DNA of 59,360 nt from Candidatus Woesearchaeota archaeon (GTDB lineage Archaea > Nanobdellota > Nanobdellia > UBA10117). How positions within the stretch are numbered: position 1 is the stretch's first letter; every line of letters starts with the position of its first letter. The stretch spans positions 1 through 59,360 of the forward strand of contig CAYGXM010000005.1 of NCBI GenBank assembly GCA_964354105.1, given 5' to 3'. Positions 3,311-58,372 of the stretch are shown one piece after another. Under the pieces are notes generated by a model. The model saw nothing but the letters and a program-made list of their open reading frames with translations. It made no database searches and was not told where the DNA came from. Made by a program: the position numbers and the translations under genes.

Positions 3311-3354
3311 ACCCTTTACAAGCATTTTTAAACTACCATTTTGCTCTTTTTAGC

Positions 3355-3777
3355 ATGGATAAAAAGGCTTTGCAAGAAAAGTATGTTGAATTGCAACTTT
3401 TATCAATGCAGATAAAACAAGTTGAAGAACAGCTTAATCTTTTAGACCAAAAAACAATGGAGATGGTGAATTTGCGCGAATCCCTTCACAGATTGCATGA
3501 ATTGAAACAAAACTCTAAAGCTCTTGTACCACTCGGCCAGGGCATTTTCACTTCAGGAAATATAGACAATACAAATGAGGTTCTTTTGAATGTCGGCTCT
3601 GGCGTCATGGTGAGGAAAAACACCCATGAAGCTGAAGAGAGCATAACAAAGCAAATTGGCCAGCTGGAAGATATAATTTTAGAACTAAGCCACAGCTTAA
3701 AGGAGTTTGCGACAAAAGCTCAAGCCGTAGAAGCGGAAATAGACAAAATATCATCAAAAGAAGAAAAAGATGTTTGA
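3355..3777 (+). CDS. pfdA: prefoldin alpha subunit
   Basis: LVPLGQGIF...VLLNVGSGVMVRK with flanking coiled coils. Confidence 0.95.
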   Translation: MDKKALQEKYVELQLLSMQIKQVEEQLNLLDQKTMEMVNLRESLHRLHELKQNSKALVPLGQGIFTSGNIDNTNEVLLNVGSGVMVRKNTHEAEESITKQIGQLEDIILELSHSLKEFATKAQAVEAEIDKISSKEEKDV

Positions 3778-51823: not shown

Positions 51824-52651
51824 TTACAATTCATCTAGCGGGCTTTTAATTTTCCTTAGCTCTGCAGATGAGACTTTTGTATAAATTTGTGTTGTGCTGA
51901 GGTCTGCATGGCCTAGCAGCTCTTGGATTTTTCTTACATCCACGCCTGCTTCCAATAAATGTGTTGCAAAGCTGTGCCTTAATGTGTGTGGTGATATTTC
52001 CTTTTTGATTCCTGCCTTGGCTGCAATTTTTTGCATCGCCATTTGAATTGCTCTTGGCTTTAGAGCCCCTTCATTTCCTTTGAAGATGTATTCATCTGCA
52101 GCTGCACCATTTGTTAATTTTTCCAATTCTGGCTTGAGTTTCTCTGCAATGTTGAAGAATCTGTCCTTTGAGCCTTTTCCGGACCTGACCCAGGCGATAC
52201 CTTCATTTAATTCTAGATCTCTCACTTTCAAATTTACTGCTTCAGAAACGCGCAAGCCTGCAGAATACATCAATTCCAGCAAAAGCTTATGTTTTGGATT
52301 GTCTGCAGCAGCTAGCAAGGCGTTAATCTCATCTTTTGATAGGGCAGTTGGCACTCTCTTGGGAACTTTGATGTTTTTGGGTAAATCCACTACCTTCTTG
52401 AGAACTTCTTCGAAAAGGAACTTTATGGCAGATTTGGCTAGGGTCATACTCCTGATAGATACCTTGTGGGGGTTAGCATCATCAACCAAATGTGCCAGGA
52501 AACCTCTAGCATCATCAGAACCTAGCTGTTCAATGTCTTTGTTTGCGAACTCGATGAACTTTTGCAGAAAGAAGTTATATGTCTTGACAGTTCTGGGGCT
52601 GAAACCACGGAGCTTTAATTCTACAGCAACTTTCTCCAGTAGTGTGGCCAT
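51824..52651 (-). CDS. xerA: XerA-type tyrosine recombinase
   Basis: GLRVSEA, GKGSKDR, HTLRHSFATHLL, LGHADLSTTQIYT; no IntI-specific insertion. Confidence 0.93.
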   Translation of the reverse strand: MATLLEKVAVELKLRGFSPRTVKTYNFFLQKFIEFANKDIEQLGSDDARGFLAHLVDDANPHKVSIRSMTLAKSAIKFLFEEVLKKVVDLPKNIKVPKRVPTALSKDEINALLAAADNPKHKLLLELMYSAGLRVSEAVNLKVRDLELNEGIAWVRSGKGSKDRFFNIAEKLKPELEKLTNGAAADEYIFKGNEGALKPRAIQMAMQKIAAKAGIKKEISPHTLRHSFATHLLEAGVDVRKIQELLGHADLSTTQIYTKVSSAELRKIKSPLDEL

Positions 52652-52681
52652 AGGATATTAATTTTATACGCAAATATATAG

Positions 52682-52709
52682 CTTGCGTTTAGTGTATCTT
52701 ATACGCAAG
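52682..52709. other. dif-like recombination site CTTGCGTTTAG-TGTATC-TTATACGCAAG
   Basis: 11-6-11 geometry, arms 9/11 inverted-identical; 31 bp upstream of xerA; extra half-site TTATACGCAAA at 52664-52674. Confidence 0.65.
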
Positions 52710-52738: not shown

Positions 52739-52765
52739 TAGATTAAAGAGTTTAATCAATAATCA
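52739..52765. repeat. 27-bp direct repeat copy 1 (TAGATTAAAGAGTTTAATCAATAATCA)
   Basis: Identical to 53099-53125; contains GATTAAA-GAG-TTTAATC. Confidence 0.9.
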
Positions 52766-52850
52766 TACTATTTAGATTGAGTAAAAATAAGAAAAATAAA
52801 AATAAAACAAAAAAAGGACTCTACCTAACTAAAGATTAGTAGCTAGAATC

Positions 52851-52994
52851 TTAGTATCTGCTTCGTCTTGGGGCCTTTTTGGCGTAACATTCTCTGCAAT
52901 AAACTGGCTTACCTTCCGTTGGTTGGAATGGTACTTGGCACGGTTGTTTACATTCAGTGCAGGTTGCATCGAACATTTTTCTTTCGAAATCCAT
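52851..52994 (-). CDS. CxxC-x17-CxxC zinc-ribbon protein, copy A (47 aa)
   Basis: Hand translation MDFERKMFDATCTECKQPCQVPFQPTEGKPVYCRECYAKKAPRRSRY. Confidence 0.92.
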   Translation of the reverse strand: MDFERKMFDATCTECKQPCQVPFQPTEGKPVYCRECYAKKAPRRSRY

Positions 52995-53098
52995 TTTACG
53001 TATTTCCTAGCAATCTTTGAAATCTTATTCAGACGTCTCTGATTTGCTAAAAAATACAGAAAATAGGGGTTTATAAGCTTTAGTAAGCCGATTTAGCC

Positions 53099-53125
53099 TA
53101 GATTAAAGAGTTTAATCAATAATCA
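53099..53125. repeat. 27-bp direct repeat copy 2
   Basis: Identical to 52739-52765. Confidence 0.9.
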
Positions 53126-53138
53126 GATATTTCAGCAT

Positions 53139-53537
53139 CTAGAAATGTGCTGTTATTTTCATTGTGCCATACTTCAGAGCTTCGTATTTCTCGCCCATAG
53201 ATTTAGCCAATGGCATTAAAGCAGGGTTAAAAACATCCATTCCTAGTCTATAATGGCGTTCGGATGTCCACCCCGGTTGGATAGTTTGTGGATCAAAAAA
53301 ACCGAAACCATATACTGCAATGGGCGCATCTACTTTAAGCAAAAGATCGTTTATTAACAGGTTTTTTCGCTCGATGTTGAAATAGGCTTGTTCGTAGCCT
53401 ATTTTTAATTTAGATACTAGCTCTCCTAATTTTGGATTTTGCTTGCTAAATGACTTTAACTCATCAGAAAGAAGTTTCTTAAATTGTTCAAATCTCTCTT
53501 CAGCAACTAGTGCGTCGTCTCTTTTCATTTCAACCAT
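53139..53537 (-). CDS. hypothetical protein
   Basis: 132-aa ORF with own TATA-like box. Confidence 0.65.
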   Translation of the reverse strand: MVEMKRDDALVAEERFEQFKKLLSDELKSFSKQNPKLGELVSKLKIGYEQAYFNIERKNLLINDLLLKVDAPIAVYGFGFFDPQTIQPGWTSERHYRLGMDVFNPALMPLAKSMGEKYEALKYGTMKITAHF

Positions 53538-53636
53538 AGCTTATTGTTAATATTGACATTTAAAAGCCTTATGGCAAGTTTAAGCAAAATTAAGAAAAAT
53601 AAAAAATAATTGACCTCTAACTACTGAAAGCTAGAT

Positions 53637-53771
53637 TTATCTTCCGCGTTTCTTCATGAAGCACTCTCTGCAGAACACTGGCCTTCCTTCTTGTGGTTGG
53701 AAAGGTACTTGTGTCTGTTGCCCGCATTCAGCGCAGGTTGCAGGGTACATCTTTCGTTCTCTAAATTCCAT
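53637..53771 (-). CDS. CxxC-x17-CxxC zinc-ribbon protein, copy B (44 aa)
   Basis: Hand translation MEFRERKMYPATCAECGQQTQVPFQPQEGRPVFCRECFMKKRGR. Confidence 0.92.
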   Translation of the reverse strand: MEFRERKMYPATCAECGQQTQVPFQPQEGRPVFCRECFMKKRGR

Positions 53772-53877
53772 TTTACTTTATCCTAGCAAATCTCTAATTT
53801 CCTCTCAGAAATCGACTACTTGCTTACATAATTAAAATATAGGGGTTTTTAAATCTTTAGGCTCTGCTTAGCCTGCT

Positions 53878-54138
53878 TTACTCCAAAACTGAAATATTAG
53901 CAAAAAGCACATCATCATCAGACCGTTGAGTATCTTCCCAATAATCTGTAAGTTCTTTTGCCCTATTCTTTAGCCTCTTAATCAAATCGGGATTCGATTT
54001 AACATATTTTCCAAGTGGCGAATTTGAACTTGGACCATTCAGCAAACTTTCGATTGAAGCTGATGAAGCTTTATGTATGAATGTTTCAAAGCGATTATCT
54101 AAATAGTTTATTGTGGGTTTTTGATACTCCATCGTCAT
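53878..54138 (-). CDS. hypothetical protein
   Basis: 86-aa ORF with own TATA-like box. Confidence 0.6.
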   Translation of the reverse strand: MTMEYQKPTINYLDNRFETFIHKASSASIESLLNGPSSNSPLGKYVKSNPDLIKRLKNRAKELTDYWEDTQRSDDDVLFANISVLE

Positions 54139-54181
54139 ATATTATTGCCATATTGGCATATATAAGCTTTTCTCACAAACT

Positions 54182-54213
54182 AAAATCTCTGATTTTTGAT
54201 TAAAGATTTTAAG
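54182..54213. repeat. 32-bp direct repeat copy 1 (AAAATCTCTGATTTTTGATTAAAGATTTTAAG)
   Basis: 31/32 identical to 54705-54736; forms a hairpin. Confidence 0.9.
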
Positions 54214-54216
54214 GCT

Positions 54217-54660
54217 TTAGCTCACTTCTGCGGCTAGCGCAGCTAGCCGTTTTTGAGCATAATTATGATCGGCCTCAAGGGCTTTTTTAATTGTCTTTTT
54301 GCCTCTTTTTGGCCCTGCGCATTTGACATAATAGGCCCATAATAGGTCTAAATTCTCTAAAACCAGCTTTGTTCCGCGAATAATGGCATCAAGGCTCTCC
54401 TTGTTGCATTCATCTATGACTTCTCGCGTTATCTCTGGTGGATCCTTGGTATCTTCAAGCATTTCTTGCAGTTTTGCACAATATTCTTTTTGCAAGTTTG
54501 ATAGCTTATCCTGAAGGCTCTTTTCATCAGGCAAGGTTATTGTCTGTTTGATAGCATAGAGGTTTAGGTTAAAGTTTGGCACATATTTAGTTTTATAGAT
54601 AAGAGCCTCTAATTCTTGTGCGTCTCTAAAAAGTTTGATTACGTCAATGTCTTTTGTCAT
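54217..54660 (-). CDS. hypothetical helical protein
   Basis: 147-aa ORF with own TATA-like box. Confidence 0.65.
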   Translation of the reverse strand: MTKDIDVIKLFRDAQELEALIYKTKYVPNFNLNLYAIKQTITLPDEKSLQDKLSNLQKEYCAKLQEMLEDTKDPPEITREVIDECNKESLDAIIRGTKLVLENLDLLWAYYVKCAGPKRGKKTIKKALEADHNYAQKRLAALAAEVS

Positions 54661-54704
54661 ATGAATAATTCTATATTGAAATTTATAAGAGTTTCGAACA
54701 AATC

Positions 54705-54736
54705 AAAATCTCCGATTTTTGATTAAAGATTTTAAG
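54705..54736. repeat. 32-bp direct repeat copy 2
   Basis: 31/32 identical to 54182-54213; overlaps the stop codon of the wHTH gene. Confidence 0.9.
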
Positions 54737-55262
54737 CGATTTTATAGTAAACGTCTTTTCCTTCCTGATCTTTCTTCAGTAAATTCATAGAATACAGCTT
54801 GCTTAGCTTTAAGGCCGCATTTGGCCTTGAGATCTTCAGGTTTTTGGCAACTTCTGCGGCTTGGATTTTCTTCTTTTTCCTCACAAAATCGAAGACTTTT
54901 TGCTCATTTGAGGAAAGCTTGATTTTTGATTCCTTTTCCTTGACAGTGATTCTTTGAGTCTCTATCTTTGCAATTCTGGTACTTAATTCGTCAAGTTTCG
55001 CATTAATTTCATTTAATGCATCAATTACTATCGCTAATAATTTTTCATTGACAATTTTGGCCTGGGTGAGTGGATGCTGTTGCAGTTTTTGCAAATCAGT
55101 ATTCCACTCGCGCAGAACCGCGTGCTCCAGTTTGGGTTTCTGTCTTGGCCGTGATTTAACCGTCGTTGTAACTGCGGCTGCGCGTATTTTTTGCTTGATC
55201 TCCGGTTTAGGCGACGCAGGCCGCTTTTCTGGCTTCCGACGAAGAAAATCAAATAATCCCAT
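54732..55262 (-). CDS. coiled-coil plus C-terminal winged-HTH protein
   Basis: LSSNEQKVFDFV...AAEVAKNLKISRPNAALKLSKL...GKDVYY; ATG at 55262 (MGLFDFLRR). Confidence 0.8.
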   Translation of the reverse strand: MGLFDFLRRKPEKRPASPKPEIKQKIRAAAVTTTVKSRPRQKPKLEHAVLREWNTDLQKLQQHPLTQAKIVNEKLLAIVIDALNEINAKLDELSTRIAKIETQRITVKEKESKIKLSSNEQKVFDFVRKKKKIQAAEVAKNLKISRPNAALKLSKLYSMNLLKKDQEGKDVYYKIA

Positions 55263-55275
55263 GTGTTTTTCGACG

Positions 55276-55330
55276 TTAAACGCGTTAAACATGTGTTTAG
55301 ATGTGTTTAACAGTTAAACACTTTAAACAC
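55276..55330. repeat. array of six TAAAC motifs at 9-10 bp spacing
   Basis: TTAAAC at 55276, 55285, 55314, 55323; reverse copies at 55295 and 55305; includes GTGTTTAA-CAG-TTAAACAC. Confidence 0.75.
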
Positions 55331-55660
55331 TTCAACTATATATACTTTTTGCTATAATTTCGCCAAAAAAGCCAGGGATTTTGGTGAAAACTTAGGAGAA
55401 ATCTGCTAAAAAACTAACAAAATTTTTACTATTTTTTGATCAAAAATTTTATCAAGATTTTTACCGGAAAACCAGGGGAATTTCCCAGGGCCTGCCGCTT
55501 AAACCTAGCTGGAAGTGAGGTAAAATCTCCTTTAAGATTTAACCCTTAAATCAATCTTTAGCTTCAAATTAGCTCAAAAGTGAGTGTTCAGAAGGACTAA
55601 AATCTGCCTAAACTAGCGCCAAAACCTGGAGAGATGAAAAAAGCTTAAGAAATTATTTAA

Positions 55661-55687
55661 TTTCCATATTACAGTTCAATATGGAAA
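55661..55687. promoter_or_regulatory. perfect inverted repeat TTTCCATATT-ACAGTTC-AATATGGAAA
   Basis: 10-bp arms upstream of the promoter of the second Lrp-domain gene. Confidence 0.5.
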
Positions 55688-55744
55688 GGCTTAAAAGTGA
55701 GATAAGCTTATATTCTCAAGCACATAATAAGATGCGGTGAAAAA

Positions 55745-57221: not shown

Positions 57222-58091
57222 TTAACAGTTTCGCAAGCCTTCCCCAAACCTAATTTGTTTAGGCTCTTTGCAAGGACGTCTTCCACCATAATAGCGCTCC
57301 TTCAAAGCGCTGCAATCTATTTTCTTGCCATCCCAAGTTATTGCAGCTTTTTGGTTATTGCAATTAGGATAAGCGCTGCAGCCTTCCTGGCCAGTATATG
57401 TTAATTCCATGTTGTATTTCTGGCCTAATTCTTTTGCCAGTACTTTAACATTATCCCATTCTTCTTCCGAAAGCTTTTCCAAATCCCTTGCCCTGCCCTG
57501 ATAAACCGGCTTGAGGAAGTGCAATCTTGTCTTTTGATAGTCTGCCCTGCAATGTTTATCAACAATCTTGATTATATTTTCCAAATCATTGTAATTTTCC
57601 TTTAGCACGCACGTATGGAATGAATAATTGTACTGCAAATCTCTTGCCCGCTTAACGCTCTCAAGCATGTTCTTTATTGGCTGCCGGTCGAAAACATCCA
57701 GCGGATTTTCGGTGCTTGTTGCTATGCAGTCATGTAAATCCCAGTTGCCATGTATCGAAAATACCAATTCATCAATATACGGCCTGCAGGCCTGCAATTC
57801 TTCAATTGGCAAGGCTTCGTGATCGCTATAATTGCCGGATGTTAAAACAATAACTTGTCTGTTCTCGGCTTTTGTGGCCTTTACAATTCGCTGAAAATCC
57901 GGGTGCTTAGGTGGGTCGCCGCCAGAAAACCTAATAATCTCAAAATCAGCATATTCTTTGACAAACCTTATGATGCTGTCTAAAGATACATATGTAGCTA
58001 TATCTGCAAAATCTGACACCGCTTCGGATGAGCACATCTTGCAATGAAGCGAGCATGCGTTAGTTATCTCAATTGTTAGCTCTTTTGACAT
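57222..58091 (-). CDS. radical SAM protein with C-terminal Cys cluster (SPASM/Twitch-like)
   Basis: CSLHCKMC, FSGGDP, C-terminal CSAYPNC...C...C. Confidence 0.92.
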   Translation of the reverse strand: MSKELTIEITNACSLHCKMCSSEAVSDFADIATYVSLDSIIRFVKEYADFEIIRFSGGDPPKHPDFQRIVKATKAENRQVIVLTSGNYSDHEALPIEELQACRPYIDELVFSIHGNWDLHDCIATSTENPLDVFDRQPIKNMLESVKRARDLQYNYSFHTCVLKENYNDLENIIKIVDKHCRADYQKTRLHFLKPVYQGRARDLEKLSEEEWDNVKVLAKELGQKYNMELTYTGQEGCSAYPNCNNQKAAITWDGKKIDCSALKERYYGGRRPCKEPKQIRFGEGLRNC

Positions 58092-58125
58092 GCAAAAGAA
58101 TGGATGGAAAGGAATAAGAAATTAG

Positions 58126-58275: not shown

Positions 58276-58363
58276 AGCCCTATCGTCCAGCGGTCAAGGA
58301 TACAAGCCTCTGGTTATAGCAAAGAGAAAGCTTGGGACACCGGTTCGAATCCGGTTAGGGCTA
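58276..58363 (+). tRNA. tRNA-Gln(CTG) with 15-nt intron at 37/38 (58314-58328)
   Basis: A1-U72 acceptor AGCCCTA/TAGGGCT; CAAGC-CTCTGG|A-GCTTG; BHB helix CTCT/AGAG. Confidence 0.93.
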
Positions 58364-58372
58364 CTAATCAAA

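Follow-up and report, generated by a model that had tools for sequence, protein, structure and literature searches.

Conserved flanks frame the variable genes of the minimal mobile elements of Neisseria, and homologous recombination brings about their exchange. Among regulators, the dimeric repressor CapS recognises palindromes built of TTAA half-sites, which occur in its own promoter and in that of an adjacent, variable downstream operon (PMC13373217), and among recombinases, archaeal XerA is reported to recombine dif sites in vitro with no need of partners (PMC2958812). Here we analyse a locus in which a regulator gene, short palindromic repeats (R), strain-variable small genes and a XerA/dif pair stand side by side. 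It lies in a 59,360-nt stretch of DNA from a Candidatus Woesearchaeota archaeon, hereafter the window, which is one entire contig of a DPANN-type archaeal metagenome-assembled genome (723 kb in 14 contigs, approximately 39% G+C). The array of small genes is bounded on one side by the gene for a coiled-coil winged helix-turn-helix (wHTH) protein and on the other by dif and xerA.

The reading that sequence comparisons favour, at about even odds, is that the R copies form a conserved operator array of the wHTH regulator, set inside a dif-proximal, strain-variable locus of small genes. The finding belongs with two things already known, regulator-operator arrays and variable islands close to dif. 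The genomes of DPANN archaea are tiny and streamlined, and both their regulation and their acquisition of genes are little known. The locus offers a testable regulator-operator pair, consisting of the wHTH protein with the R sites and GTTAAAC boxes as its putative operators, together with noncoding conservation up to the level of the class, and a precisely delimited hot spot beside dif and xerA at which near-identical strains differ by orphan genes. If R mediates the turnover of these genes, a new kind of archaeal cassette system would be at hand; if it does not, the locus would provide a clean model of the sites at which new genes land and of their takeover by a resident regulator.

Repeat R in the array

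The array comprises six open reading frames (ORFs), encoding Zn1 (47 aa), p132, Zn2 (44 aa), p86, p147 and the wHTH protein (176 aa). An earlier reading of the DNA, made without database searches (the sequence-only reading), had described six co-oriented minus-strand genes, each with a TATA-like box, and both the ORF list and our inspection of the sequence by eye bear this out. An independent public assembly (L213) matches the array at 99.98% identity over 4473 nt, and the arrangement is therefore real and no assembly artefact.

The same reading had drawn attention to a 15-bp core, GATTAAAGAKTTTAA, which we recovered at all four of the positions it had given (52741, 53101, 54198 and 54721, all on the plus strand). 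Shuffled sequences give an expectation of 0.11 copies, with 0 of 100 shuffles reaching four, and there is no further copy with one mismatch or fewer in the 14 contigs of the genome. The cores lie within two near-identical repeat pairs, again as had been described: copies A1 (52739-52765) and A2 (53099-53125), of 27 nt, are identical, and copies B1 (54182-54213) and B2 (54705-54736), of 32 nt, differ at one base. The similarity of A2 to the B copies extends as far as 53135. The core is a perfect palindrome, GATTAAA-GAG-TTTAATC (GATTAAAGAGTTTAATC at 52741-52757 in A1; 54198-54214 in B1), somewhat degenerate in the B copies, and because it is palindromic both pairs may alternatively be taken for inverted copies of a single unit of about 33 nt, with 82% complementarity. 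In its general form, R is a 17-bp palindrome of 7-3-7 architecture, GATTAAA-N3-TTTAATC, inside repeats of 27-33 nt, with TTAA-type half-sites and one or two extra GATT/AATC half-sites.

R proved to be confined to the locus rather than scattered over the genome. Allowing one mismatch, GATTAAA-N3-TTTAATC has four matches in 723 kb, three of them at this locus, and five of the 11 exact genome-wide matches to TTAAA-N3-TTTAA fall within 52743-55326, the fifth being in the leader of the wHTH gene. A metagenome-wide scan with the 17-nt core returned single chance matches only, the pattern being too short. As had been noticed from the sequence alone, three copies lie just past stop codons, at distances of 0-13 nt from those of the wHTH, p132 and p147 genes, and the remaining copy is 86 nt beyond the stop codon of Zn1. 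R precedes the TATA box of the next gene by 23-31 nt in this genome and by 4-11 nt in other genera, where it abuts that gene's promoter.

The description of the repeats as hairpins did not hold up. The folding energies of the four copies are not clearly better than those of shuffled sequences (z from -0.06 to -2.0), and the 32-nt pair, which had been said to fold better on the minus strand, gave -7.1 kcal/mol on that strand versus -8.1 kcal/mol on the plus strand. The same reading was correct in holding that the repeats are not canonical attC sites. These are imperfect palindromes of 57-141 nt that carry RYYYAAC/GTTRRRY boxes and fold as single strands; the 17-bp palindrome of R has no such boxes, and R folds about as well as its shuffles. 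Miniature inverted-repeat transposable elements or remnants of insertion sequences are likewise not indicated, as there are no copies outside the locus and no transposase nearby. The R copies are neither attC sites nor dif-type sites, nor are they convincing hairpins.

A further suggestion was that the repeats are transcription signals, either terminators placed after stop codons or antisense promoters with a transcription factor B recognition element and TATA box (AAAG-ATTTTAAG on the plus strand). The three copies shortly past stop codons fit this suggestion, as do T-runs on both strands of the palindrome and the similarity of AAAGATTTTAAG to the local promoters AAAGATTTAAAAACCCC and AAAGCTTATAAACCCC. 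However, the motif is specific to this locus and absent from all other gene ends of the genome, the A/T-rich stems are weak for intrinsic terminators, and neither termination nor binding of the TATA-binding protein would demand G/C ends and exact arms that are conserved across the class. We regard this explanation as very unlikely.

Conservation of R and of the locus in relatives

For comparison, the loci of relatives were oriented with the wHTH gene on the plus strand. Upstream of this gene the order is stable, with Sec61-beta, eIF-2-beta, DUF424, PAP2, p145, p207 and an AsnC-like RAM-domain gene followed by a spacer of about 450 bp. Downstream, the core arrangement in family f1 is the wHTH gene, R, one small gene (usually a zinc-ribbon gene), R and dif, with xer following dif in the genus of the window only. 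The dif site of four further families of the order (12 genomes) is instead located beyond xer, which in them adjoins the wHTH gene and converges with it. In family f1 the dif-proximal R copy is usually found 24-34 nt from dif (31 nt for A1), with an overall range of 8-147 nt and a distance of 83 nt in another strain of the same species (L075). A zinc-ribbon gene of the Zn1 type occurs between the wHTH gene and dif in other genera too and is a conserved resident of the locus. The version in the window is an expanded one, having five genes and four R copies versus one gene and two R copies in other genera.

An R-type palindrome at or just past the stop codon of the wHTH gene occurs in at least five families of the order, as well as in other genera of family f1. 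It is also present at this stop codon in other orders of the class (e.g. GTTAAAAACTTTTAATC and GATTAAAACTTTTTATC), whose wHTH proteins are only 27-35% identical to that of the window. Copy B2, which overlaps the wHTH stop codon, thus occupies a position that is kept up to class level. Across these genomes the arms of R are kept in sequence, the spacer varies, and no compensatory changes are seen; in conjunction with the weak folding, this points to sequence-specific recognition by a protein rather than to a structure of the nucleic acid itself. R is an old conserved site that is tied to the wHTH gene and predates the array by a very long time.

The wHTH protein and its putative operators

The wHTH gene (54732-55262, minus strand) is single-copy, occurs in 59 of 251 genomes of the class, and encodes the presumed R-binding protein, which has weak TrmB and ArsR matches. 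Its predicted structure comprises a disordered basic N-terminus, a long helix (residues 64-113) and a C-terminal wHTH domain (residues 118-175), and the fold matches MarR, ArsR and AspA proteins. By sequence, the closest solved domain is the wHTH domain of CapS (E 2e-6), with which the protein has in common the recognition-helix pattern IS-x-x-NA-x-x-[KR]-L-x-K-L.

The leader and promoter of the gene (55263-55344, minus strand) contain GTTTAAC/GTTAAAC boxes. Leaders of the wHTH gene carry 4-7 GTTAAAC(AC) boxes in 23 of the 23 genomes examined, and the boxes are kept in every family examined. Relative to the background of the locus, TTAA-N5-TTAA dyads show a 16-fold enrichment before the gene and a 28-fold one after it. 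The R half-site ATTAAAC is one base removed from the leader box GTTAAAC, and the leader sequence TTAAACACTTTAA at 55314 shares the TTAAA-N3-TTTAA geometry of R. What is found is a palindrome with dimer-compatible spacing that neighbours promoters and is akin to the boxes in the promoter of the wHTH gene itself, as expected of an operator array. From the leader boxes, their relatedness to R, the TTAA palindromes of CapS and the adjacency of gene and repeats, we infer that R serves the wHTH protein as an operator.

In the mechanism that we propose, the wHTH protein would dimerise through its long helix and bind the GTTAAAC boxes over its own leader, resulting in autoregulation. It would further bind the R sites in the short intergenic regions downstream, and could in this way either co-regulate or insulate the small genes as far as dif and xerA. 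The expansion of the array itself came about by duplication of a unit of R, promoter and zinc-ribbon gene, and by the gain of orphan genes, some of them with an R-bearing intergenic module.

Several points weigh against this reading. The assignment of R to the wHTH protein is itself inferred, from adjacency, motif relatedness and a distant solved relative. A position 23-31 nt upstream of a TATA box is not a classical one for an archaeal repressor. Some families have R between wHTH and xer genes that converge on it, a place that offers no promoter to regulate, and the conserved role of R may consequently concern the wHTH gene or the architecture of the locus rather than downstream promoters. 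Finally, an operator model alone leaves unexplained two features of the sister species described below, namely the identical R that follows each newly gained gene and a promoterless ORF between perfect 26-bp R repeats.

The wHTH gene is separated from the AsnC-like gene by a gene-free spacer (approximately 400 bp, 55345-55744) that is kept in length across genera and has no Rfam match. The spacer contains 3-5 AAAGTGAG boxes in a common orientation, including one immediately before the AsnC-like gene's TATA box, and a second perfect palindrome, GATTTAACCCTTAAATC, at 55536. A replication origin in the 450-bp intergenic region was considered and rejected: cdc6/orc1 is on another contig, in two relatives with both genes on one contig it lies 62-187 kb off, and GC skew merely tracks gene orientation. 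A search for non-coding RNAs in the 49-59 kb region with Rfam gave a tRNA only.

XerA and dif

The recombinase encoded next to the array (xerA, 51824-52651, minus strand; 275 aa) is the sole tyrosine recombinase of the genome and its only match to PF00589, with the Pfam Phage_integrase domain preceded by a SAM-like N-terminal domain. It scores 242.8 bits against the NCBIfam equivalog recomb_XerA_Arch, passing the cut-off of 220, and 223.7 against the integron-integrase model, which lies below the cut-off of 265 and is matched in two pieces. The remark of the sequence-only reading that the enzyme lacks the IntI insertion is upheld by these scores. Directly upstream of xerA is a 28-bp dif-like site, CTTGCGTTTAG-TGTATC-TTATACGCAAG (52682-52709), with inverted arms of 11 bp and a spacer of 6 bp, as in archaeal XerA/dif systems. 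This is the sole full match in the genome and is kept in relatives; one extra half-site is found at 52665-52673. Degenerate dif sites were also sought within the array (52.7-55.3 kb), where nothing dif-like was found within 7 mismatches. With a single dif and a single half-site, the modules of the array are not bounded by dif-like XerC/D-type sites of the kind that delimit pdif modules and IMEX (integrative mobile elements exploiting Xer). XerA is the housekeeping enzyme, which has its own dif, and, going by their sequence, the R repeats are not part of the XerA/dif system.

Another reading is that R and the wHTH protein form an accessory or architectural part of the Xer/dif system or of terminus organisation, the small genes being bystanders. 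By analogy with the cer/psi accessory sequences or with MatP/matS, a protein at R beside dif may control or orient XerA. In favour of this, xer is the convergent neighbour of the wHTH gene in the 12 genomes from four further families mentioned above, and the short spacing between R and dif that is usual in family f1 is found even in genera in which xer is not adjacent. However, that spacing is variable over the range given above, and in family f4 dif lies on the opposite side of xer from R. Furthermore, synteny is broadly kept anyway in such small genomes, where p145, p207 and the AsnC-like gene are linked as well, and archaeal XerA is reported to act on dif in vitro without partners (PMC2958812). 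An accessory role of this kind is improbable.

Several relatives differ in the region around xer and dif. In a genome of the same genus (G001), two alternative paths lead from a CarS-like gene to the zinc-ribbon gene. One (L011, contig C70) matches the window in having xer, dif and R. The other (L010, C75) carries a short XerA-like recombinase (211 aa) that has no N-terminal domain, together with unrelated genes; in it, a 175-aa ORF ends with 35-44 nt of the 3' end of xer, and a dif half-site lies beside an R-like copy. The same short recombinase replaces xer and dif on a 163-kb contig of a related species (L077:11990-12745). In another genus (L087:11026-20543), a PIN/MazE toxin-antitoxin pair and many unannotated genes, not xer, are found beyond dif, which indicates that the far side of dif is likewise a synteny break.

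Strain variation between the wHTH gene and dif

Gene content at the locus is not invariant among relatives, and the interval from the wHTH gene to dif is a strain-variable hot spot. In L075, which belongs to the same species as the window (wHTH protein 97% identical; shared array DNA 90-96% identical), the order is wHTH, R, p147, Zn2, R, Zn1, R, dif and xer. Two segments of the window are missing from this strain. The first (53861-54206) consists of copy B1, a promoter and the orphan gene p86 (86 aa, ORF 53878-54138, minus strand); its junction is a 5-nt TAAAG repeat, and the segment is also missing from the sister species. The second (53133-53576) consists of a promoter and the orphan gene p132 (132 aa, ORF 53139-53537, minus strand), and its insertion point, which shows no junction repeat, is 16 nt away from R. 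The only sequence homologues of either orphan are identical copies on L213. Copy B1 with its promoter is 76.5% identical to B2, below the value of approximately 87% found between the B copies of this and the sister species, and this suggests that the B1-p86 segment was imported.

Zn1 (52851-52994, minus strand) is a zinc-ribbon protein of the CxxC-x17-CxxC type (Pfam zf_Tbcl_2, 1e-17; TIGR04272), and Zn2 (53637-53771, minus strand; zf_Tbcl_2, 3.5e-20) is its paralogue, with 66% identity and with flanks that were duplicated along with those of Zn1. The exact Zn2 protein has no match on record. The product of p147 (54217-54660, minus strand), a resident gene immediately downstream of the wHTH gene, is without an assigned function; its orthologue in the sister species, p147', is 54% identical and in the same position, and a look-up with p147' revealed no new haplotypes.

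In the sister species, contigs that encode an identical wHTH protein differ at the Zn2-Zn1 junction. Two of them (L083 and L086) have a 72-nt scar there; one (L084), with a left flank 99.9% identical to that of L083, has the gene c98 followed by R; and in two (L082 and L085) c199 and c155 are present in this order, each with an R after it. The inserted ORFs each stop 11-14 nt before an identical GATTAAACTCTTTAATCTAAGCTAAA, and c155, which is promoterless, lies between perfect 26-bp direct repeats of this sequence, having been seen in one context only, in three samples. The 199-aa protein of c199 (L082:7160-7759) is an internal tandem duplication of the 98-aa protein of c98 (L084:5225-5521), to which its residues 103-198 are 95% and residues 1-67 36% identical. 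In an all-against-all comparison the cassette genes are mutually unrelated, except for the pairs c98/c199, Zn1/Zn2 and p147/p147', and searches for their function with Pfam, NCBIfam, PHROGs and PADLOC yielded only a weak prokaryotic RING/C1 zinc finger in c155. An integrated provirus or plasmid was considered as the source of the array and rejected: the wHTH and zinc-ribbon genes are single-copy, conserved chromosomal genes, and xer is the sole recombinase gene.

These data bear on the possibility that R is the joining or recombination site of a gene-capture array other than an integron, in which genes move as units of an ORF plus R. The crossover may be site-specific, catalysed by some further enzyme or by XerA with the wHTH protein as helper, or it may occur through short homology between R modules of 26-33 nt. 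Between strains whose flanks are 96-99.9% identical, single genes are inserted or deleted precisely in the interval from the wHTH gene to dif. The spacing of 11-14 nt between c98/c199 or c155 and GATTAAACTCTTTAATCTAAGCTAAA, the perfect repeats around c155, the placement of p147 and of Zn1 between direct R repeats in the window, the breaking or branching of G001 contigs at R, and the apparent import of B1 with p86 all speak for such units. On the other side, the two well-resolved insertions in the window lack R-by-R junctions, the 7-3-7 palindrome is unlike the core sites of tyrosine recombinases, whose geometry includes an overlap of 6-8 bp, and the only recombinase is the housekeeping XerA with a proper dif. 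The evidence from c155 comes from a single context, R is far older than the array, and most genes have their own promoters; all six genes of the array do, the promoterless c155 belonging to a relative and to no array gene of the window, which is unlike the promoterless cassettes of integrons. Capture at R is to be regarded as unlikely, though as more than a remote possibility.

The sequence-only reading had proposed a non-integron gene-capture or shuffling array, possibly driven by Xer. Given that the motif is not scattered and that the locus is variable, its cassette-like picture of the locus survives; of the capture itself it can be said that only some junctions coincide with R. The Xer-driven mechanism is not supported, on the points already given: a sole XerA with its own dif, no dif-like sites in the array, and an R geometry unlike that of tyrosine-recombinase core sites. 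The readings that compete with an operator array of the wHTH protein are not all mutually exclusive with it. In a broader form, R and the coiled-coil wHTH protein would constitute an undescribed, dif-adjacent platform in a class of DPANN archaea, serving either the capture, exchange and loss of ORF-plus-R cassettes outside the integron framework or a terminus-organising nucleoprotein complex that doubles as an insertion hot spot; we consider this unlikely.

L075 additionally contains two copies of an element of approximately 52 nt with two hairpins (GCTGAA..TTCAGC and AGAAAAA..TTTTTCT) at 2654-2705 and 3323-3375, one in the leader of Zn2 and one between R and dif. The element looks like a miniature mobile or terminator-like module, and there is no full copy of it in the genome of the window. 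Outside the array, a 289-aa gene between p145 and a tRNA gene (57222-58091), the product of which has by eye a CxxxCxxC motif near its N-terminus, is missing at that position in G001 (L012). This region, with the insertion listed as 57232-58120, is a second strain- or species-specific insertion. The tRNA gene (58276-58364; Rfam tRNA, 51.6 bits), the anticodon of which was left undetermined by ARAGORN, probably contains an intron.

Comparison with known systems

Integrons, including archaeal ones (bioRxiv 10.1101/2022.02.06.479319), resemble the locus in having small, mostly orphan genes in tandem beside a tyrosine recombinase gene, a repeat after the ORFs and cassettes that differ between strains, and the one promoterless ORF between identical repeats adds to the likeness. 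They differ from it in that the recombinase here is a XerA with no IntI-specific domain, R is a perfect palindrome of 17 bp whereas attC sites are 57-141 nt long and carry R/L boxes, most genes here have their own promoters, and several junctions lie outside the repeat. The pdif modules of Acinetobacter plasmids and IMEX likewise place variable gene modules beside Xer/dif, but the modules described here have no dif-like sites at their borders, the genome having a single dif and a single extra half-site.

Minimal mobile elements of Neisseria are similar in that the same slot holds different genes in close strains without a dedicated mobility gene, while the slots of the present locus are punctuated by a conserved, putatively protein-binding palindrome and lie beside dif. 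AspA and its centromere site on pNOB8 offer a further parallel, as an archaeal wHTH protein is paired with a palindrome next to its own gene (binding being predicted in the present case) and AspA is among the fold matches. However, ParA/ParB partner genes are not found here, and the fold similarity is generic to wHTH domains.

The CapS-type 'controller of adjacent pathways' repressors (PMC13373217) share with the protein of the window a wHTH domain (E 2e-6) in C-terminal position and a similar length, and their TTAA palindromes occur both in their own promoter and before downstream genes, the set of which differs between genomes. In the archaeal protein, a disordered basic tail and a coiled coil take the place of the STAS domain, and there is no partner kinase. 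The archaeal locus differs further in its predicted sites, which are found also at the regulator's stop codon and beside dif.

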